IMG/VR virus record: IMGVR_UViG_2541047945_000008
Span: 1-23,343 of that record
Source of the DNA: a virus
Taxonomy: Duplodnaviria > Heunggongvirae > Uroviricota > Caudoviricetes
Length of the DNA: 23,343 nucleotides
Direction: 5' to 3' (one strand)
Part shown: one piece after another, positions 4,541 to 22,009 of the stretch
Position numbering within the stretch: position 1 is the stretch's first letter
Layout of the letters: the number at the start of each line of letters is the position of its first letter
The notes under the pieces: model-generated
The model's database searches: none
What the model was told of the DNA's origin: nothing
Seen by the model: the letters and a program-made list of their open reading frames with translations, nothing else
Translations under genes and position numbers: made by a program

Positions 4541-4598
4541 AAAAAGGGCGGCAGAGCAGTCACGGAGTAAAACTGATACCGCCAAATGTCACCAGAAA
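4541..4598 (-). ncRNA. dicF: DicF small regulatory RNA
   Basis: The reverse complement reads tttctggtgacatttggcggtatcagttttactccgtgactgctctgccgcccttttt, matching my recollection of DicF (the ftsZ-targeting sRNA processed from the dicB operon transcript), ending in a T-run. Confidence 0.7.
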
Positions 4599-6382: not shown

Positions 6383-6844
6383 CTACTGGTTACGTTTCTT
6401 TAGTGCCAGCATGTTCTCGAAGGCTTCCTCGTAGAGCTTGTTTAGTCCACGTAGCTGGTTAAGGAGTTTGGCTTTTTCTGACGCAGGTAGAATCTCGAAG
6501 AGGTTAAGTAACTCTGCCTGTTCTTCATTGACCAGCCTCCATCCTTTGCCTGAAAAGTTATCATCATAAGTATCTGATGATCTTACATAATTCATTAAGT
6601 CTTTAAGGTCTTCTCGAATGTCCTCTGGTTTTACCTTTAACAGAGCCGCAAATTTTAGCGCAGCGTCGGTATTTACCGGTATCTTGCCGTTCAGATACTG
6701 GCTAACGGTGCCTTGAGATTCGAATCCCAACAACTCAGCCGCCAGCTCTTGAGTCAGCTTCAGCTCTTTTTTTCTTGCATTCCATGCGGCTTTTAAATTC
6801 TTGCTCGCTTCTGGAGTTGCAATCACTTCGCGTGTTTTTTTCAT
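6383..6844 (-). CDS. Prophage repressor, DicA/RacR-like HTH-XRE protein (153 aa)
   Basis: N-terminal HTH (LTQELAAELLGFESQGTVSQYLNG). Divergent from a Cro-like gene across an AT-rich approx 100-bp region. Confidence 0.75.
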   Translation of the reverse strand: MKKTREVIATPEASKNLKAAWNARKKELKLTQELAAELLGFESQGTVSQYLNGKIPVNTDAALKFAALLKVKPEDIREDLKDLMNYVRSSDTYDDNFSGKGWRLVNEEQAELLNLFEILPASEKAKLLNQLRGLNKLYEEAFENMLALKKRNQ

Positions 6845-6945
6845 ACATAGAGTTTATTTGTTTTACCAATATTATCAAAGATAGTCTGGCTATTGATCTT
6901 TAAAATTAGCGGGGCTAATATTTGCTCGAGGCATAACGTAGAAGG

Positions 6946-7227
6946 TTGGCTATGAACTTAAGAGACTATTTAAAAGAGAAACATATCACCCAGCTACAGT
7001 TTGGGAAGCTAACGGGTTTATCTCAGGTGCATGTAAGTCGAGTGCTGGGGGGCTATGAAAGATTCAGCCCTGAAAAAGCATTACGTGTTGCTGAAGTAAC
7101 GAATTTCGAGGTTACACCTCATGAACTCCGGCCTGATATTTACCCGAATCCAACCGACGGCTTACCTGTTGGATTCAAGGCTAACACACCAAATGCATCG
7201 GAGTTGATTCATGAAAATCAGGCATGA
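6946..7227 (+). CDS. Cro/YdaS-like HTH regulator (93 aa)
   Basis: HTH (ITQLQFGKLTGLSQVHVSRVLGG), divergent from the repressor; SD AAGG upstream. Confidence 0.7.
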   Translation: MAMNLRDYLKEKHITQLQFGKLTGLSQVHVSRVLGGYERFSPEKALRVAEVTNFEVTPHELRPDIYPNPTDGLPVGFKANTPNASELIHENQA

Positions 7228-7636
7228 GCACATCCGCATGGCGATGAATGCCTGGGCGCATCCGGACGGTGAAAAAGTTCCGGCAGCTGAAATAACCCGG
7301 GCTTATTTTGAGCTTGGTATGACGTTCCCGGAATTATATGACGACAGCCATCCGGAAGCCCTGGCTCGCAATACCCAGAAAATTTTCCGCTGGGTGGAGA
7401 AAGACACTCCTGATGCGGTTAAAAAAATTCAGGCGTTGTTACCAGCGATCGAAAAAGCAATGCCGCCTCTGCTGGTGGCCCGAATGCGCAGCCACAGTTC
7501 AGCTTATTTTCGGGAGCTGGTGGAGACGCGGGAACGACTGGTGAGAGACGCTGATGATTTTGTCGCAGTGGCGATCGCTGGTTTCAACCAGATGAATCGT
7601 GGTGGCCCTGCAGGAAATATTGTGGCTGTGCATTGA
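7211..7636 (+). CDS. YdaT-like protein (141 aa)
   Basis: Overlaps the end of the Cro-like gene. N-terminus MKIRHEHI... and size match my recollection of Rac YdaT. Confidence 0.6.
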   Translation: MKIRHEHIRMAMNAWAHPDGEKVPAAEITRAYFELGMTFPELYDDSHPEALARNTQKIFRWVEKDTPDAVKKIQALLPAIEKAMPPLLVARMRSHSSAYFRELVETRERLVRDADDFVAVAIAGFNQMNRGGPAGNIVAVH

Positions 7637-7707
7637 CTCGCAATATTCATACCGGATCACTTCCGGCAATTTGTGAGTAAAAAGATTCGGTATCAGAAGA
7701 GGTGAGT

Positions 7708-8748
7708 ATGGCTAACGCCTGGCTCAGATTATGGCATGACATGCCAAATGACCCTAAGTGGCGAACAATTGCCAGGGTGTCAGGGCAGCCAATTGCAACA
7801 GTGATGGCAGTGTATATCCACCTTCTGGTGAGCGCGTCACGAAATGTCACGACATGTCACGGCGTGTCACTACGTGGTCACATTGATGTCACGACGGAAG
7901 ATTTAGCAAGTGCGCTTGATGTGACGGAAGAAGTAATTGATTCAATTTTACAGGCAATGCAGGGGCGGGTACTTGATGGAGATTTAATCACCGGATGGGA
8001 AAAACGCCAGGTACTGAAAGAGGACAATGGCAACGTTTCACAAACCGCGAAATCCCCGGCAGAGCGCAAGAGAGCGCAGCGCGAGAGGGAAAAATTACGA
8101 AAACAGAATGAGGGGTGTCACGACGAGTCACGCATATGTCACGACATGTCACGACGAGTCACGACAGATAAAGATACAGATAAAGAATTAAACCCCACAC
8201 ATAACGCGCACGTGCGCGAGAGTGCTCCGACCAGTGAGTCGAGTGGTACGCCGTTGCAGGCAGCAGAACCTGCATCCCTGGATGGACTGAGCGAACCCAT
8301 CGGGAAATTTCCGATGGTCGATGACTGGCATCCGTCGCCGGATTTTCGACGACGGGCTGCGTTGTGGGGGATGGCTTTGCCGGAGCCGGAATTTACACCT
8401 GCTGAACTTGCCGCTTTCCGGGACTACTGGGCAGCGGAGGGGAAAGTTTTCACGCAGGTTCAGTGGGAGCAGAAATTCGCCCGTCACGTAAATCACGTCA
8501 GGGCGCAGGTTAAGCCAGTCAGCAAGGGGGTAAACCATGCAGCAGCACCAGGTGGCACCGCATCACGGGCAGTTCAGGAAATTCGGGCAGCACGTGAGCA
8601 GTGGGAACGTGAAAACGGATTTATCAGCGACGGAAACGGTCTGGAAGCTGTGGGAACTCATGGGGGAGGTTTATTCGAACCGCTGGACCCAGAAGAACGG
8701 GGCCGCACCTTCGAAGCTCTGGATTGCACAGATTGGCGCGATGACTGA
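7708..8748 (+). CDS. Replication initiator (lambda O-like functional analogue) with internal iterons and a DnaT-like C-terminal region
   Basis: ATG at 7708 with SD GAGGTGA (track ORF starts at an upstream GTG). Contains two clusters of GTCACG-type direct repeats. Followed by a P-like gene. Confidence 0.65.
   Translation: MANAWLRLWHDMPNDPKWRTIARVSGQPIATVMAVYIHLLVSASRNVTTCHGVSLRGHIDVTTEDLASALDVTEEVIDSILQAMQGRVLDGDLITGWEKRQVLKEDNGNVSQTAKSPAERKRAQREREKLRKQNEGCHDESRICHDMSRRVTTDKDTDKELNPTHNAHVRESAPTSESSGTPLQAAEPASLDGLSEPIGKFPMVDDWHPSPDFRRRAALWGMALPEPEFTPAELAAFRDYWAAEGKVFTQVQWEQKFARHVNHVRAQVKPVSKGVNHAAAPGGTASRAVQEIRAAREQWERENGFISDGNGLEAVGTHGGGLFEPLDPEERGRTFEALDCTDWRDD
7835..7895. repeat. Iteron cluster 1 (about six GTCAC(G) repeats, 10-11 bp period)
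   Basis: Read directly: cGTCACGaaatGTCACGacatGTCACGgcgtGTCACtacgtgGTCACattgatGTCACGacgg. Confidence 0.6.
8116..8191. other. Putative origin of replication: five 10-bp GTCACGACNN iterons followed by an AT-rich tract
   Basis: GTCACGACGA GTCACGCATAT GTCACGACAT GTCACGACGA GTCACGACAG then ATAAAGATACAGATAAAGAATTAAA. Iterons plus AT-rich region inside the initiator gene, as in lambda ori. Confidence 0.6.
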
Positions 8749-9202
8749 GCAGCAAATCCGACAGGTCTGCCGCCAGTGCATGGACCGCTGCCGGGCGGGT
8801 GAAACATGGCCTCCGGACCTGGCTGAGTTTGTGGCGCTGATTTCAGAAAGCGGGGCCAATCCATTTGGCCTGACGGTGGATGCTGTGATGGAGGAGTACC
8901 GCCGCTGGCGTGATGAGTCCTGGCGATATGACGGAAGCGACAAATATCCGTGGCCTCAGCCTGTGCTGTACCACATCTGCCTCGAAATGCGTACCAGAGG
9001 GATTGAGCGCCAGATGACGCAGGGTGAGTTAAAACGACTTGCGGAACGGCAACTGACGAAATGGGCAAAGCATGTTGGTAACGGGATGAGTGTTCCGCCA
9101 GTGCGACGACAACTGGAAGGGGCGAAACACCCGCAAGGGCCAACGCCAATTGAACGGCTGAAACAGGAATACGAACGCCGGAAGGCAGCTGGTTTTATTT
9201 GA
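8537..9202 (+). CDS. Lambda P-like replication protein (helicase loader), 221 aa
   Basis: Resembles lambda P as recalled (WPPDLAEFVALI vs FLPSPGQFVAWC; KYPWPQPVLYHICLEMR vs YPWKSNAHYWLV). SD AAGGGGG 7 nt before the ATG at 8537. Overlaps the O-like gene by 212 nt; alternative in-frame start at 8660. Confidence 0.7.
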   Translation: MQQHQVAPHHGQFRKFGQHVSSGNVKTDLSATETVWKLWELMGEVYSNRWTQKNGAAPSKLWIAQIGAMTEQQIRQVCRQCMDRCRAGETWPPDLAEFVALISESGANPFGLTVDAVMEEYRRWRDESWRYDGSDKYPWPQPVLYHICLEMRTRGIERQMTQGELKRLAERQLTKWAKHVGNGMSVPPVRRQLEGAKHPQGPTPIERLKQEYERRKAAGFI

Positions 9203-9235
9203 ATCTGAGAAACGATTTTGTCGGAGGAAATTTTA

Positions 9236-10006
9236 ATGGAAACCGTATTTGACGCACTGAAAGCAATGGGAAAAGCCACATCGGTAGAACTGGCCGCGCG
9301 ACTTGATATCAGTCGTGAAGAGGTTCTCAACGAGCTGTGGGAACTCAAAAGAAAAGGCGTCGTTGATAAAACTGGTCACACCTGGTTTCTGGCTGGCGAA
9401 GGTGAATCCCGGGTAACCGAAGAGCGGCCAGTAAAATCTGAAGCACAGGATATGCTGACCGGGGAGGTCGAACAAAAAGTTACCGCAGACATGATGATTG
9501 AGTTTATCGGTCAGGATGGGGCTAAAACGTGTGAGGAACTGGCGGGTAAGTTCGGTGTCAGTACTCGCAAGGTTGCTTCCACGCTGGCGGTGGTAACCGC
9601 AACGGGGCGGCTGGCACGCGTTAATCAGAACGGTAAATTTCGTTACTGCATGCCGGGCGATAATTTACCAGCAGAGCCGAAAGCCGCGCTGGTAACGGAA
9701 AGTGATGGTAAGGCCTTTCCTCAGCCAGCAGGTGCTGCGTTACCAGTCCGGGAAGCCGCAACACAGGAAGAAATTAAAACAGAAACTGTGGCGGACATTG
9801 TGCAGCCGTTGCCATCGTTTACCGAAACGCAAGCAGATGAGCTGATTTTTCCGTCCCTTCGCAGGGCAAACCTGGCGCTGCGCAGGGCGAAAAGTGATGT
9901 TCAGAAGTGGGAGCGAGTCTGCGCCGCGCTGCGGGAGCTGAACAAGCACCGGGATATTGTTCGACAGATTACTGATTCTTCCCGCCGTGTTGTATCGGAA
10001 AAGTGA
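9236..10006 (+). CDS. Hypothetical phage protein with two predicted winged-helix-like segments (256 aa)
   Basis: ATG at 9236 with SD GGAGG (track ORF starts at TTG 9218). HTH-like segments [27 protein letters not shown] and [21 protein letters not shown]. Confidence 0.55.
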
Positions 10007-10600: not shown

Positions 10601-11287
10601 ATGACCCCAATAAAAATATTTATGACTATTGCTGATTTCAAACGGCCTAAATTGGAGCTCCCAAACGGGGCAAACAAACTACTACTGCACTCTTGCTGTG
10701 CTCCATGTTCCGGTGAAGTGATGGAGGCGCTTCAGGCCTCGGGAATCGACTACACCATCTTTTTCTACAACCCGAACATTCATCCTCAGAAAGAGTATTT
10801 AATTCGTAAGGATGAAAATATTCGCTTTGCTGAACAACACGGCGTGCCGTTTATCGATGCTGATTACGACACCGACAACTGGTTTGAACGTGCCAAAGGA
10901 ATGGAATGGGAGCCTGAGAGGGGGATCCGTTGTACCATGTGTTTTGACATGCGTTTTGAGCGGACAGCGTTGTACGCTGCTGAAAATGGTTTCAGTGTGA
11001 TCAGCAGTTCACTGGGCATTTCACGCTGGAAAAATATGCAGCAGGTTAACGAGTGTGGGCGGCGAGCTGTTGCGCATTATCCGGGTATGGTGTACTGGGA
11101 TTATAACTGGCGCAAGCAGGGCGGCTCGTCCCGTATGATTGAAATCAGCAAGCGCGAAAAATTCTATCAGCAGGAATATTGTGGCTGTGTGTATTCTCTG
11201 CGCGATACCAATCTACACCGCAAATCTCAGGGACGCCCTCTTATCAAAATTGGCCAACTCCACTACGGAAAAGAAGAGAAGGAGTGA
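10601..11287 (+). CDS. queH: DUF208/QueH-like protein (putative B12-independent epoxyqueuosine reductase), 228 aa
   Basis: N-terminal [11 protein letters not shown] motif with additional conserved Cys (CTMC, CGC), recalled as the DUF208/QueH signature. No obvious SD; alternative ATG at 10622. Confidence 0.6.
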
Positions 11288-11524
11288 TTTTATGGATCAC
11301 CTTTCTGATTGATTTCATATTGGCGAGGTGACGTGAGTTAAGTAGAATGGCTGCGGGTGCTTGAGGCTATCTGTCTCAGGCATGAACACTGAAAGGCAGA
11401 TAGAGAAAAGCCCCAGTTAACATTTCGCGTCCTGCAAGACGCTTAACATTAATCTGAGGCCCAATCTATGTCTCACAAATGTAGGTTAGCCTCTTACGTG
11501 CCGAAAGGCAAGGGGAAGCAGGCT

Positions 11525-11680
11525 ATGAAGCAGCAAAAGGCGATGTTAATCGCCCTGATCGTCATCTGTTTAACCGTCATTGTGACGGCACTGGTAACGA
11601 GGAAAGACCTCTGCGAGGTACGAATCCGAACCGGCCAGACGGAGGTCGCTGTCTTCACAGCTTACGAACCTGAGGAGTAA
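11525..11680 (+). CDS. hokD: Hok/Gef-family membrane toxin (51 aa), HokD/RelF-like
   Basis: MKQQKAMLIALIVICLTVIVTALVTRKDLCEVRIRTGQTEVAVFTAYEPEE matches my recollection of HokD/RelF. A structured leader lies upstream and a terminator downstream. Confidence 0.8.
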   Translation: MKQQKAMLIALIVICLTVIVTALVTRKDLCEVRIRTGQTEVAVFTAYEPEE

Positions 11681-16495: not shown

Positions 16496-17260
16496 ATGGA
16501 AGAACAGCACGGTAATTACTTTATAAAACGAATTCAGTTGATTGGAAGAGGGGCATTTGGCTTTGTTGAACACGTTAAGGTTTACAACCTCAATAAAGGT
16601 GAATGCGGGGATTATGCTAGAAAGGTTTTAGCACCCGAAAAACCAGAGCTTTTGGCGCAAATAGAGCAGTTTAGAAGGCGTTTTAAAAGGGAGGTTGTGT
16701 ATCAATCACATTGCGTACATAGCAATATTGTTCCTATTTATTTGTGCGATTTGTTTGTTGAGAATCCATGGTTCATTATGGATAAAGCAGAATGTGATCT
16801 TGAGCACGAAATAACGAACAACCTTCTTACAACAGATCAAAAAATTTCAATAGTGAAAATGGTATTAGATGGTGTAGCTTACATCCATGCCAAAGGCTAT
16901 TTACACAGAGATATAAAACCCTTTAATGTTTTGCGATTTAGCGACGGAACATACAAGGTGTCTGATTTTGGTCTGGTAAAAGATACGAATCCCGAAGGGG
17001 ATACCACTAAATTGACCGAGATCGGTACCCGTATGGGAAGTACAAGATATATGGCTCCCGAGATTTTATATAATGCAGAGTATTCAGTTAAGACTGATGT
17101 TTATGCTGTGGGACGGTTAATTGAAGACTTAAATTTAGATGATAAAAAAATAAAGCCTATCATAGCTAAGTGCACAAGGATGGATAAAGATGATAGATAT
17201 CAGACAATAGATGATGTGGCGTTTGATTTTGCGCATTCTTTTTTAAGGAGTGAGTCATGA
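16496..17260 (+). CDS. Hanks-type (eukaryotic-like) Ser/Thr protein kinase, kinase domain only (254 aa)
   Basis: Canonical subdomains: GRGAFGFV (Gly loop), YARKVL (catalytic Lys), HRDIKPFN, DFG, MAPE, DVYAVGR. ATG at 16496 (track ORF starts at TTG 16421). AT-rich. Confidence 0.85.
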   Translation: MEEQHGNYFIKRIQLIGRGAFGFVEHVKVYNLNKGECGDYARKVLAPEKPELLAQIEQFRRRFKREVVYQSHCVHSNIVPIYLCDLFVENPWFIMDKAECDLEHEITNNLLTTDQKISIVKMVLDGVAYIHAKGYLHRDIKPFNVLRFSDGTYKVSDFGLVKDTNPEGDTTKLTEIGTRMGSTRYMAPEILYNAEYSVKTDVYAVGRLIEDLNLDDKKIKPIIAKCTRMDKDDRYQTIDDVAFDFAHSFLRSES

Positions 17261-18000
17261 TTCAGCTGATAGCGACTTCATCATTCTCGTATCCAAAAGA
17301 ACCAGGTAGGGTCAACGAAGATTCATTGCTTCCTCCAAAAATTGTAGGAGACGGCATCTTATTTGCCGTAGCTGATGGTGTAGGTTCATACTCTGGTGCC
17401 AGTTATGCTTCATCCATGGCAATCGCTGAACTTTCAGCATTGACAAGTTTATCTTTTGATGCAGTTCCGAATGTATTTGCTGAAGTTAAGCGAAAAGTTA
17501 TGTCGTTAGCTGAAGTTAATGATGAGTTCGATAAAGCTGCTACTACACTTACCTTTTGTTATGTTTGTGATAGCGGAATTATTATTGGTCATATTGGTGA
17601 TTGTCGCTTGTATTGCATTGGAGAAAAGAAAGCATATCAATTGACGAAGGACGATACCAGACATCAGATGTTAATTGATCAGAATATTTTTAAACCCAGA
17701 GATTTGAAGAATAAACCGGGAAAAAATATCTTAACGACTGCCATAGCCTCAAATGTTGATATGGAATACGACTGTGATTTTATCCCGTGGAAAGATTTGC
17801 CTGGTATTAACGGGTTGTATCATCTGTGTATCATGTCTGATGGAGTTCATAACGTTTGGGAAAAACGCCCCAGATTTACATCAAATACTATGAGTAATAG
17901 TCAGAAGTTTTCTAATGGTATTTTGCGTCGTATAGAGAGAGCCGGACCTGATGATGACTTTTCTTTAGTAAGTATAATGGTGCGTGTGACGTCAGATTAG
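17257..18000 (+). CDS. PP2C-family (PPM) Ser/Thr protein phosphatase (247 aa)
   Basis: PPM motifs: NEDS, FAVADGVGS, GDCRLY, MSDGV, GPDDD. Start overlaps the kinase stop (ATGA), so the pair is translationally coupled. Confidence 0.85.
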   Translation: MIQLIATSSFSYPKEPGRVNEDSLLPPKIVGDGILFAVADGVGSYSGASYASSMAIAELSALTSLSFDAVPNVFAEVKRKVMSLAEVNDEFDKAATTLTFCYVCDSGIIIGHIGDCRLYCIGEKKAYQLTKDDTRHQMLIDQNIFKPRDLKNKPGKNILTTAIASNVDMEYDCDFIPWKDLPGINGLYHLCIMSDGVHNVWEKRPRFTSNTMSNSQKFSNGILRRIERAGPDDDFSLVSIMVRVTSD

Positions 18001-18486: not shown

Positions 18487-18562
18487 GGCCCTTTAGCTCA
18501 GTGGTGAGAGCGAGCGACTCATAATCGCCAGGTCGCTGGTTCAAATCCAGCAAGGGCCACCA
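18487..18562 (+). tRNA. tRNA with CAU anticodon (Ile2-lysidine or Met type)
   Basis: Hand-folded cloverleaf: acceptor GGCCCTT/AAGGGCC, D-arm AGCTCAGTGGTGAGAGC, anticodon loop CTCATAA, T-arm GGTTCAAATCC, 3' CCA. Confidence 0.8.
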
Positions 18563-18569
18563 TCACATA

Positions 18570-18646
18570 CCGCCATTAGCTCATCAGGAAAGAGCGCCAG
18601 CCTTCGAAGCTGGTTGCGCGGAGTTCGGGTCCCCGAAGGCGGTCCA
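18570..18646 (+). tRNA. tRNA-Arg-like (anticodon UCG), slightly degenerate
   Basis: D-arm GCTC...GAGC, anticodon stem CCAGC/GCTGG with loop CTTCGAA, T-loop TTCGGGT, 3' CCA. One mismatch each in the acceptor and T stems. Confidence 0.55.
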
Positions 18647-18659
18647 TTATCTGTATCCT

Positions 18660-18736
18660 GCGTTGTTAGCTCAGCCGGACAGAGCAATTGCCTTCTAAGC
18701 AATCGGTCACTGGTTCGAATCCAGTACAACGCGCCA
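18660..18736 (+). tRNA. tRNA-Arg (anticodon UCU)
   Basis: Perfect acceptor stem GCGTTGT/ACAACGC, D-arm TAGCTCAGCCGGACAGAGC, anticodon loop CTTCTAA, T-arm GGTTCGAATCC, discriminator G, CCA. Confidence 0.85.
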
Positions 18737-18782: not shown

Positions 18783-18996
18783 TCACAATTCAGGCGGTTG
18801 ACTGTTGTCTGGTTTGCGGGGAGTTTGTTAAAAGAAACTGGCATGGTGAATCCCCCTGTGCGGAGGGGCAATCAGCGAGTAGGTATATGGGATAATCGCG
18901 GATTCAGGTGCTGGTACTGAATTCACCGGGAGGCACCCGGCACCATGCAATGGCACATAGCGCCACTCTCCAGCCCCTCTCCGGAGGGGCTTTTCT
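18783..18996 (+). repeat. Repeat unit A: structured element ending in a terminator (candidate sRNA gene)
   Basis: Shares blocks with unit B: tcacaattcag, ttgac, tttgttaaaa, catggtgaatcccc, a cccc/gggg hairpin, caccgggaggcacccggcaccatg and terminator gcccctc-tccg-gaggggc plus T-run. Confidence 0.5.
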
Positions 18997-19250
18997 GTGC
19001 CGGATACATCACAGTTTCTGGAACCTTAGGTACTACAGTATCAGTCAGGGTGCTATATTTTCAGATGTGATGAAAGCCTGTCAGCAGGCAGGGCGTATCG
19101 GAAATGACCCAGTAGAGAAAACGTTGACTCAGATACCGGTGCTGAGTTACCGGGAAACCGGCATCACATGACCGCTATCCTTCCAGGCCCATCCGCTCCG
19201 GTGGGCCTTTTTACTGCAGAAAACAGGTTCCCCGTTAAATGCTATGTTGC

Positions 19251-19483
19251 TCACAATTCAGTAAGTTGACAGTTGCCTGTCAGACTGGGCATTTGTTAAA
19301 AAAATTTCGCATGGTGAATCCCCCTGAGCGGAGGGGCGACTGGTGACGGTATAATCTCTGATTATCAAAACGAGAATGACGCGGGTTTAGTGGCACCGGG
19401 CTGAACTCACCGGGAGGCACCCGGCACCATGTGCATGATGATACAGATACGCGGCTTTAGCCCCTCTCCGGAGGGGCTTTCTT
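19251..19483 (+). repeat. Repeat unit B: second copy of the structured element
   Basis: Same conserved blocks and the same terminator hairpin (agcccctctccggaggggctttctt) as unit A; internal segments diverge. Confidence 0.5.
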
Positions 19484-19711
19484 ATGGACAAAAAAAGCCC
19501 GCGCTGGGAGACGCGGGCGGCAAGGAATAAACAATAAAACGTGAAGTAATATTTCAGCTGGCGAATAATACCCCATAGTAATCACTCTGCGCAACTGCGC
19601 GGTCTTTTTCGAATTGCGGGCTGTAGTCTCCCTTCTGCCATTGTCCTGTAACTTCCGGACTTCAGCCTGCTCCTTATCTGACTCACAACATTATCCCGCC
19701 CGGGAGGATTC

Positions 19712-19906: not shown

Positions 19907-20233
19907 ATGACTAAAAATACTCGTTTTTCCCCTGAAGTCCGTCAACGGGCAGTCCGTATGGTTCTGGAAAGTCAGGGCGAATATGACTCACAATGGGCGA
20001 CAATTTGTTCCATTGCTCCAAAGATTGGCTGTACGCCGGAGACTCTGCGTGTCTGGGTTCGCCAGCATGAGCGGGATACCGGGGGCGGTGATGGAGGGCT
20101 CACCACCGCTGAACGTCAGCGTCTGAAAGAGCTGGAGCGTGAAAATCGTGAACTGCGCCGCAGTAACGATATCCTTCGCCAGGCTTCCGCTTATTTTGCG
20201 AAGGCGGAGTTCGACCGCCTCTGGAAAAAATGA
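19907..20233 (+). CDS. IS629 transposase OrfA (HTH, 108 aa)
   Basis: [57 protein letters not shown]... with a leucine-zipper-like C-terminus. Confidence 0.85.
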
Positions 20234-21120
20234 TGCCACTGCTGGATAAGCTGCGTGAGCAGTACGGGGTCGGACCGCTATGCAGCGAACTGCATATTGC
20301 CCCGTCAACGTATTACCACTGTCAGCAACAGCGACATCATCCGGATAAACGCAGTGCCCGTGCGCAGCGCGATGACTGGCTGAAGAAAGAGATACAGCGC
20401 GTATACGATGAAAATCACAAGGTATACGGTGTGCGTAAAGTCTGGCGTCAGTTGTTACGGGAAGGTATCAGAGTGGCCAGATGCACTGTGGCACGTCTCA
20501 TGGCGGTTATGGGACTTGCCGGTGTTCTCCGGGGTAAAAAGGTCCGTACGACCATCAGCCGGAAAGCCGTTGCCGCAGGCGACCGCGTAAACCGTCAGTT
20601 CGTGGCAGAACGACCTGACCAGCTGTGGGTGGCTGATTTTACTTACGTCAGCACATGGCAGGGCTTCGTCTATGTGGCGTTCATCATTGATGTGTTTGCC
20701 GGATACATTGTGGGGTGGCGGGTCTCATCGTCCATGGAGACGACATTCGTGCTGGATGCACTGGAGCAGGCGTTATGGGCCCGTCGACCGTCCGGCACGG
20801 TCCATCACAGTGATAAAGGTTCTCAGTATGTATCGCTGGCCTACACACAGCGGCTTAAGGAAGCCGGATTACTGGCATCAACAGGAAGTACAGGCGACTC
20901 GTATGACAACGCGATGGCGGAGAGCATCAATGGTCTTTACAAAGCGGAGGTAATACACCGTAAGAGCTGGAAAAACCGTGCAGAAGTGGAACTGGCCACA
21001 CTCACGTGGGTGGACTGGTATAACAATCGACGATTGCTGGAAAGGCTGGGCCATACTCCTCCGGCAGAAGCAGAAAAAGCTTATTATGCTTCCATCGGAA
21101 ACGATGATCTGGCAGCCTGA
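20230..21120 (+). CDS. IS629 transposase OrfB (DDE integrase-like catalytic domain)
   Basis: 296-aa ORF overlapping OrfA (ATGA); rve-type DDE domain (WVADFTYV ... HHSDKGSQY ... DNAMAES). Confidence 0.85.
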
Positions 21121-21425: not shown

Positions 21426-22009
21426 TGGCATTCAGAATGAGTGAACAAGCACGGACCATAAAAATTTATAATCTGCTGGCCGGAACTAATGAATTTATTG
21501 GTGAAGGTGACGCATATATTCCGCCTCATACAGGTCTGCCAGCAAACAGTACCGATATTGCACCACCAGATATTCCTGCTGGCTTTGTGGCTGTTTTCAA
21601 CAGTGATGAGGCATCGTGGCATCTCGTTGAAGACCATCGGGGGAAAACGGTTTATGACGTAGCGTCAGGGGACGAGTTATTTATTTCTGAACTCGGTCCG
21701 TTACCGGAAAATGTTACCTGGTTATCGCCGGAAGGGGAGTTTCAGAAGTGGAACGGCACAGCCTGGGTGAAGGATACGGAAGCAGAAAAACTGTTCCGGA
21801 TCCGGGAGGCGGAAGAAACAAAAAACAAACTGATGCAGGTAGCCAGTGAGCATATTGCGCCGCTTCAGGATGCTGCAGATCTGGAAATTGCAACGGAGGA
21901 AGAAACCTCATTGCTGGAAGCCTGGAAAAAGTATCGGGTGTTGCTGAACCGTGTTGATACATCAACTGCACCTGATATTGAGTGGCCTACGAACCCTGTC
22001 AGGGAGTAA
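21425..22009 (+). CDS. tfa: Tail fibre assembly protein (Tfa), 194 aa
   Basis: Start overlaps the tail-fibre stop (TAATG). Conserved Tfa C-terminus ([32 protein letters not shown]). Confidence 0.8.

Follow-up and report, generated by a model that had tools for sequence, protein, structure and literature searches.

Introduction

Phage lambda has four iterons, 18-bp units of inverted symmetry, and each binds a dimer of the O protein (PMC6022878). According to the annotation they occupy nt 349-433 of the O gene. The initiator gene itself contains the origin, at the point where the N-terminal DNA-binding part meets the C-terminal loader-interacting part, and after the repeats comes a strand-asymmetric, AT-rich tract which encodes a flexible linker. 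The P gene for the helicase loader lies immediately downstream, the N-terminal domain and the iterons are swapped as one module between phages, and DnaA boxes are absent. In phage SPP1, initiator-bound 'AB boxes' and an adjacent AT-rich DNA-unwinding element form oriL inside gene 38; the product of this gene, G38P, is an origin-binding protein without an AAA+ domain, and a second set of the same boxes constitutes oriR (PMC5737612). Lambdoid phages that carry an O-type gene but no loader gene are described as unstudied, and their replication as not understood (PMC12315714).

The present work concerns a stretch of 23,343 nucleotides (hereafter the window), which is the left part of a lambdoid prophage located beside ompW in Escherichia coli. 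Its replication region is identical in E. coli ABU 83972, NCTC86, 118UI and others. A 346-aa ORF of this region contains two arrays of short direct repeats, the second of which abuts an A-rich tract (Table 1). The repeats are probably iterons, and the segment 7836-8192 is likely to be the vegetative replication origin of the prophage, within the very gene that encodes its initiator. This would provide a concrete candidate origin for a large family of initiators, encoded by phages and prophages and not characterised so far, some members of which come from phages without a helicase-loader gene.

Apart from the form of the iterons, the features of the lambda origin given above have their counterpart in the window, where array 2 takes the place of the lambda iterons and a lambda-P-family gene follows the initiator gene. 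A sequence-only reading of the window had already pointed to a lambda-like layout, with iterons and an AT-rich element inside the initiator gene, and this is supported by the conservation, the covariation and the tract described below. It had also set the short, single-turn repeats apart from the lambda iterons, correctly so, since the unit in the window is a direct repeat with a 6-bp core. The name 'O-like' that it gave to the gene holds for position and architecture and fails for homology, as no similarity to lambda O is detectable and the C-terminal domain is DnaT-like. Lambda has a single cluster, whereas the gene in the window has two. This had been regarded as unusual, but two clusters turned out to be conserved in a widespread family of initiators and are no peculiarity of the window.

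The locus also resembles SPP1 oriL/G38P in that repeats and an AT-rich element are located in the initiator gene, a second, separate array exists, and the N-terminal domain is DnaD-NTD-like. The second SPP1 site lies about 32 kb from oriL, whereas the second array of the window belongs to the same gene; the repeats differ in sequence and unit length as well. Two arrays of one initiator-binding repeat, one in the origin and one with an auxiliary or regulatory role, are known from P1 (incC/incA), F (incB/incC) and P4 (ori/crr). Those arrays are intergenic, consist of 19-22 bp units or octamers and are hundreds to thousands of bp apart, while both arrays of the window are coding sequence of the initiator itself. 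From the RepA_N-type plasmid initiators (staphylococcal pSK41/pTZ2162 RepA) the present family differs in host range, C-terminal domain and iteron sequence, and no sequence-level family match was found. An origin within the initiator gene is thus a known layout, of which the two-array form is most likely previously undescribed. Neither a description of this origin or its repeats nor any experiment on the family was found in the open-access literature searched, and an older account in a subscription journal is possible.

Table 1. Features of the replication region (positions in the window)
Feature	Position	Strand	Remarks
cI-like repressor	6383-6844	-	early-right operon
cro/YdaS-like	6946-7227		early-right operon
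cII/YdaT-like	7211-7636		early-right operon
Initiator gene, 346 aa	7708-8748	+	winged helix aa 1-~105, linker, DnaT-like ssDNA-binding domain aa ~201-267
Array 1, six GTCAC(G/T/A) units	7836-7893	+	GTCAC starts 7836, 7846, 7856, 7866, 7877, 7888; spacing 10, 10, 10, 11, 11 bp
Possible inverted core GTGAC	7921-7925	-	in D-V-T codons, aa 71-73
Array 2, five GTCACG units	8117-8163	+	GTCAC starts 8117, 8127, 8138, 8148, 8158; spacing 10, 11, 10, 10 bp
A-rich, purine-rich tract, candidate DNA-unwinding element	8164-8192	+	ACAGATAAAGA x2 + ATTAAA
Lambda-P-family helicase-loader gene	8741-9202	+	RefSeq start 8741; longest ORF from 8537

Results and discussion

Two phased repeat arrays

The two arrays have the same orientation as the ORF and are located at nt 129-186 and nt 410-456 of the gene, 229 bp apart. 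The unit consensus is nnnGTCACGnn, that is, an asymmetric 6-bp core repeated directly every 10-11 bp. Over 71 genes the spacing between units was 10 bp in 340 cases and 11 bp in 140. In the 23.3-kb window, the arrays hold 11 of the 21 GTCAC occurrences on the + strand, nine of the 11 occurrences of GTCACG and all six exact copies of GTCACGAC. The window was compared with 300 first-order Markov simulations, in which the number of GTCAC per 60 nt never exceeded 3, against the observed values of 6 and 5. When one mismatch was allowed, the 8-mer GTCACGAC gave 15 matches over the whole window with 12.8 expected. As this is no enrichment, the signal consists of clustering and phasing. The six and five GTCACG-type direct repeats with a period of 10-11 bp, first noticed by reading the sequence, are therefore confirmed by their positions and by the simulations.

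Array 1 encodes residues 44-62 of the protein (SRNVTTCHGVSLRGHIDVT) and array 2 encodes residues 137-152 in the linker (CHDESRICHDMSRRVT). In most genera array 1 has four units; the two extra units of the window correspond to an in-frame insertion of 21 bp (7 aa). A first scan of IMG/VR returned near-identical relatives only, which were used to evaluate copy-number polymorphism. Among these close relatives, array 1 has 4, 5 or 6 units and array 2 has 3, 4 or 5, and the substitutions are located mostly in the spacers.

Purifying selection on the repeats as DNA

The repeats lie in coding sequence, and their copy number moves by in-frame 21-bp steps, which indicates that slippage does occur. They could be seen, then, as a mere repetitive peptide or as the product of neutral replication slippage, with no function at the DNA level. 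Against this stands the way in which the hexamer is translated. It is read in three frames, as VT (GTC ACG), as C/G-H (xGT CAC G) and as SR (xxG TCA CGx), and a period of 10-11 bp puts successive hexamers in different frames, so that no peptide repeat is formed.

Codon usage was evaluated in 19 species-level homologs from different genera, aligned codon by codon without gaps. The mean codon entropy was 0.33 bits inside the hexamers versus 1.53 outside them (p=2e-5). The codons of V47 (GTC), T48 (ACG) and G50 (GGT) were the same in 19 of 19 sequences, and so were those of H51 (CAC) in 18 of 18 and V54 (GTC) in 19 of 19, while T55 (ACG) and S44 (TCA) each had one exception among 19. Other invariant residues use 3-6 codons each, their synonymous sites being saturated, and the spacer residue R49 is encoded by four codons. 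Since the remaining synonymous sites of the very same sequences are saturated, it is unlikely that the freezing of these codons is an artefact of recent ancestry.

Of 38 loci, fetched as one genome per species, about two dozen have GTCAC at nt 129, 139, 149 and 160 of the gene and a further group of GTCAC at about nt 387-430. Array 2 was present in all 22 GTCACG-type loci that were inspected, with 3-6 units in rotating frames, and always abutted the A-rich tract. In 21 of these loci it has 3-5 units at 10/11-bp spacing, and the remaining one (Erwinia, L023) has six units at mixed distances of 5-10 bp. The frames of array 2 differ among species, in a linker whose other residues vary; the hexamer is retained all the same. 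With respect to phages 689R5 and Tritos, a 1-nt deletion is offset by a 1-nt insertion, by which the peptide is shifted and the hexamers are kept.

For the analysis of covariation, IMG/VR was rescanned with queries from other hexamer classes. Of the 108 distinct homologous genes compared, 101 have one and the same hexamer, which is GTCACG, GTAACG or CGAACGC, at least twice in each of the two zones; elsewhere in the gene it was present in 0-3 copies, usually 0 or 1. Repeats shared by both zones were lacking in six of the 108. The GTCACG class comprises 70 genes, a count that includes a GTCACA gene and another that narrowly misses the cut-off; among the more distant homologs, 23 genes belong to the CGAACGC class (e.g. 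several metagenomic Pseudomonadota) and ten to the GTAACG(C) class (e.g. Pantoea, Enterobacter, Marinobacter and Sphingomonas). The hexamer class shifts together with the initiator lineage. Some branches have no array 1, and in these homologs the repeats of array 2 are weak as well.

The GTAACG class uses only two frames, and its spacing is irregular (8-12 and 21 bp). The third frame is avoided because an in-frame TAA would arise. In this class the repeats are thus kept at the cost of regular spacing, which speaks against a peptide repeat or slippage. Taken as sequence comparison, these results show purifying selection on the repeats as DNA, array 1 included, and the probability that they merely reflect peptide or slippage is practically negligible. 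A repetitive peptide had been named beforehand as the outcome that would speak against an origin. As sole cause it is excluded by the three-frame reading and the frozen synonymous sites. The comparison of homologous initiators, which had been proposed at the same time, gave a positive answer in the hexamers kept through frame changes and compensating indels and in the covariation of the two zones. The result is an unusually clean case of dual coding, in which a DNA array coincides with the code for a structured segment of its own presumed binding protein; the traces of this are the frozen codons, the reading in three frames and the avoidance of stop codons that distorts the spacing of the GTAACG class. 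The three hexamer classes would predict replication-specificity (incompatibility) groups among co-resident prophages.

An additional site may exist between the arrays. At least 60 of 72 GTCAC-class genes, counted among the eight commonest variants, have GTGAC at the D-V-T motif, with GTG as the Val codon, unlike the Val of the direct repeats, for which GTC is always used. In the CGAACGC class the motif is replaced by DL(D/E) or DM(D/E), once by DVE, and in the GTAACG class GTTAC was found at this site in one gene and GTAAC in two. The pattern is only suggestive of an extra inverted site at the codons for aa 71-73.

Two homologs depart from the common gene structure, namely those of a Serratia MAG (L038:3001-4191) and of Pantoea sp. 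BAV 3049 (L040:3001-4305). They have an insertion of ~100+ aa after aa ~113 with the motif VGISRNPWAR..., which we take to resemble a T5orf172/GIY-YIG-type module. Repeats of a fourth kind (GTAGTACTACG / CGTAGCTAC) border the insertion on either side, and the downstream copies abut the usual GATACAGATACAGAT tract. From the sequence, it looks as if a mobile domain had landed within the iteron array.

Modules that travel with the repeats

In megablast searches, positions 7600-8186 matched phages 689R5, Evi and Tritos at 88-90%, and positions 8166-9300 matched Rac-SA53 and the PPompW phages at about 90%. The switch of homology falls inside the A-rich tract, where the 689R5/Tritos side ends and the Rac-SA53/PPompW side begins. 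In phages 689R5 and Tritos both arrays are found again, but the C-terminal half of the gene is another one and P is missing. Conversely, YdaU of Rac-SA53 has the C-terminal half, the P gene and the A-rich tract in common with the window, and its N-terminal half is DUF1376. It was considered as a carrier of the same repeats and rejected, as no GTCAC arrays were found in it. An inverted repeat (TGTTCAAACA...TGTTTGAACA) is located upstream of the A-rich tract in its gene (L002:2440-2530) and may be the binding site of the DUF1376-type N-terminal domain.

When the neighbours of 16 distant GTCACG-type loci were compared, the initiator was present in every case, P in three, cro in two and DUF1627 in one. 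The mosaic of megablast matches, 689R5/Tritos, Rac-SA53 and these 16 loci together indicate that the N-terminal domain and the repeats form one unit of exchange, and the DnaT-like C-terminal domain and P another. At the level of sequence, the N-terminal domain of the initiator is the only element that always accompanies the repeats. The common A-rich tract would explain where replication modules recombine.

These comparisons also bear on the possibility that the arrays bind some other protein (a host factor, YdaT/cII-like, DUF1627 or DUF977) and serve regulation or packaging. The genes for DUF1627 and DUF977, both with HTH-like features, are indeed located just downstream of P in the early-right operon. 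None of these neighbours is conserved across the 16 distant loci, however, and 689R5 and Tritos keep the arrays with another C-terminal module and without P. Furthermore, the change of hexamer class with initiator lineage points to the initiator, as a conserved host factor would not account for three classes, and no DnaA box was found in the whole window. Binding by a protein other than the initiator is thus very improbable.

Many of the closest database proteins are annotated as 'partial', their contigs ending inside the initiator gene. Draft assemblies seem to break often at this gene, perhaps because of several co-resident prophages with a common mosaic half.

The initiator protein

Database relatives of the N-terminal 160 aa number more than 900, with 55-67% identity, and belong to Enterobacterales, Pseudomonas, Bordetella, Achromobacter, Chromobacterium, Acidovorax and others. 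NCBI names close relatives 'phage replisome organizer'. A Pfam scan of the complete protein gave a single match, PF17948 (DnaT ssDNA-binding), at aa 201-267 (E 1e-17), and no Pfam family, the replisome-organiser N-terminal family included, was matched by the N-terminal domain at E<=0.01. Homology to lambda O was rejected, as there was no Pfam match and hhalign gave a probability of 0.04 (E 0.87) for the N-terminal domain profile. Weak PHROG matches were to 'DnaD-like helicase loader' (3e-7) and 'replisome organizer' (3e-5), and the fold of the domain is a DnaD-NTD-like / RepA_N-like winged helix.

The AF2 model of the C-terminal domain matched the DnaT crystal structures 4ou6/6aeq (Foldseek E 1e-5, 56-59% identity). 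With the NCBIfam DnaT model the score was 97 bits over positions 80-166, below the equivalog cut-off of 201 bits. The likeness to DnaT is limited to the domain, and the initiator is not a DnaT ortholog.

In the AF2 model, array 1 encodes a beta-hairpin/loop between helices 29-45 and 63-70 of the N-terminal domain. This hairpin is a segment of lower confidence with an invariant Arg-Gly turn. The position of the classical 'recognition helix' (aa 74-84) is acidic. Outside the repeat-encoded residues, the N-terminal domain is almost invariant among the three iteron classes; it varies with class only in the hairpin flanks (NVT-RG-H.., NATE-RG-RTQ and NET-RG-N..) and in the DVT motif. The hairpin encoded by array 1 (aa 44-62) might itself read the hexamer, which would amount to a self-referential code, an idea that we consider improbable. 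Were it true, a single change in a repeat would alter the binding site and its reader together, and new origin specificities (incompatibility groups) could arise by a path built into the gene.

The A-rich tract and the predicted core origin

Array 2 is directly followed by ACAGATAAAGATACAGATAAAGAATTAAA, in agreement with the AT-rich tract seen in the sequence-only reading. The 30-mer 8164-8193 has a G+C content of 23%, within the lowest 1.8% of all 30-mers of the window, and by nearest-neighbour energy no 30-mer of the gene is less stable than the one at 8163-8192. The tract is 76% purine on the top strand and encodes the linker TDKDTDKELN. A tract of the (GATAAA)n type follows array 2 in all GTCACG-type homologs and is present in the other repeat classes inspected too. 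The repeats beside it are clear, except in the six genes without shared repeats. Since the tract occurs in every repeat class inspected, with repeats beside it, array 2 together with the tract is the predicted core origin.

A perfect G+C-rich palindrome of 14 bp (CGCGCACGTGCGCG) lies at 8205-8218, 13 bp past the tract. It was the sole hairpin found in a scan of 6800-9300. It is part of the C-terminal module, and close relatives vary at this position (GCGCGCGTGCGC etc.). In the lambda origin, too, a palindrome follows the AT-rich region on the right.

The following sequence of events can be proposed. Monomers of the initiator would bind the GTCACG hexamers through their winged-helix N-terminal domains, head to tail and one per helical turn, and would be arrayed on one face of the DNA. 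The complex on array 2, aided by negative supercoiling and by transcription from pR, would then open the A-rich tract. Finally, the DnaT-like C-terminal domain would hold the opened strand and/or recruit the lambda-P-type loader, which would deliver the host DnaB.

The role of array 1

Array 1 is a second candidate initiator-binding array, predicted to be auxiliary and, to judge from its codons, under selection of its own at the DNA level. It most likely cooperates with array 2, either via looping or by a higher local concentration of the initiator. A rigidly phased loop between the arrays was considered and rejected, as the inter-array distances of 249-339 bp are not multiples of 10.5. Array 1 may also, or instead, serve autoregulation as a roadblock close to the 5' end of the initiator gene.

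In its stronger form, this last idea states that both arrays bind the initiator and that array 1 is a control element and not a part of the origin. It would either block RNA polymerase coming from pR, with autoregulation of the initiator and P, or titrate or handcuff the initiator, like the incA/incC iterons of the P1 and F plasmids. The location of array 1 early in the gene, in the path of transcription from pR, is favourable to such a role, and so are its dispensability in some family members, its copy number of 4, 5 or 6 among close relatives, as expected of a tuning element, and the lack of a conserved helical phasing with array 2. On the other hand, a promoter and terminator scan of 6800-9300 gave nothing above chance, and no promoter-like site stands out (1 versus 1.6 expected). 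The weak array 2 of homologs without array 1 suggests moreover that the two arrays act together. A control element separate from the origin is thus somewhat unlikely. It is compatible with the main explanation for array 2, and cooperation of the two arrays within the origin remains the preferred reading.

Other features of the prophage

The loader gene was identified by Pfam (PF06992 Phage_lambda_P, E 5e-16), by the PHROG 'P-like helicase loader' (E 2e-63) and by the RefSeq annotation. Its start is ambiguous. The ORF from 8537 shares 212 nt with the initiator gene, read in a different frame, and the Pfam P-domain alignment starts at aa 55 of this long form (nt ~8699), upstream of the RefSeq start. 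A single PHROG profile of 482 positions (15931) spans both the initiator and the P proteins.

Just past the DUF977 gene, the early region holds a gene for QueH (epoxyqueuosine reductase, 10622-11287), which is found in 118UI too; other small genes take its place in ABU 83972. No Rfam family overlapped the array region. The matches above the gathering score in the window were the DicF sRNA, the sok antitoxin beside hokD, three tRNAs (Ile, Arg and Arg in the matching RefSeq record), two copies of the STnc100 sRNA, the ALIL frameshift pseudoknot, which corresponds to an IS3-family element, and IS009. They are located at 4546-4597 on the - strand and at 11355-11530, 18487-18733, 18812-19489, 20188-20304 and 21768-21966 on the + strand. 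In the 118UI record, adjacent genes for a serine/threonine protein kinase and a PP2C phosphatase lie downstream of the Q antiterminator (L123:23397-24900). By offset from 118UI, from which the window diverges further downstream, this pair would correspond to positions ~16496-17999 of the window.
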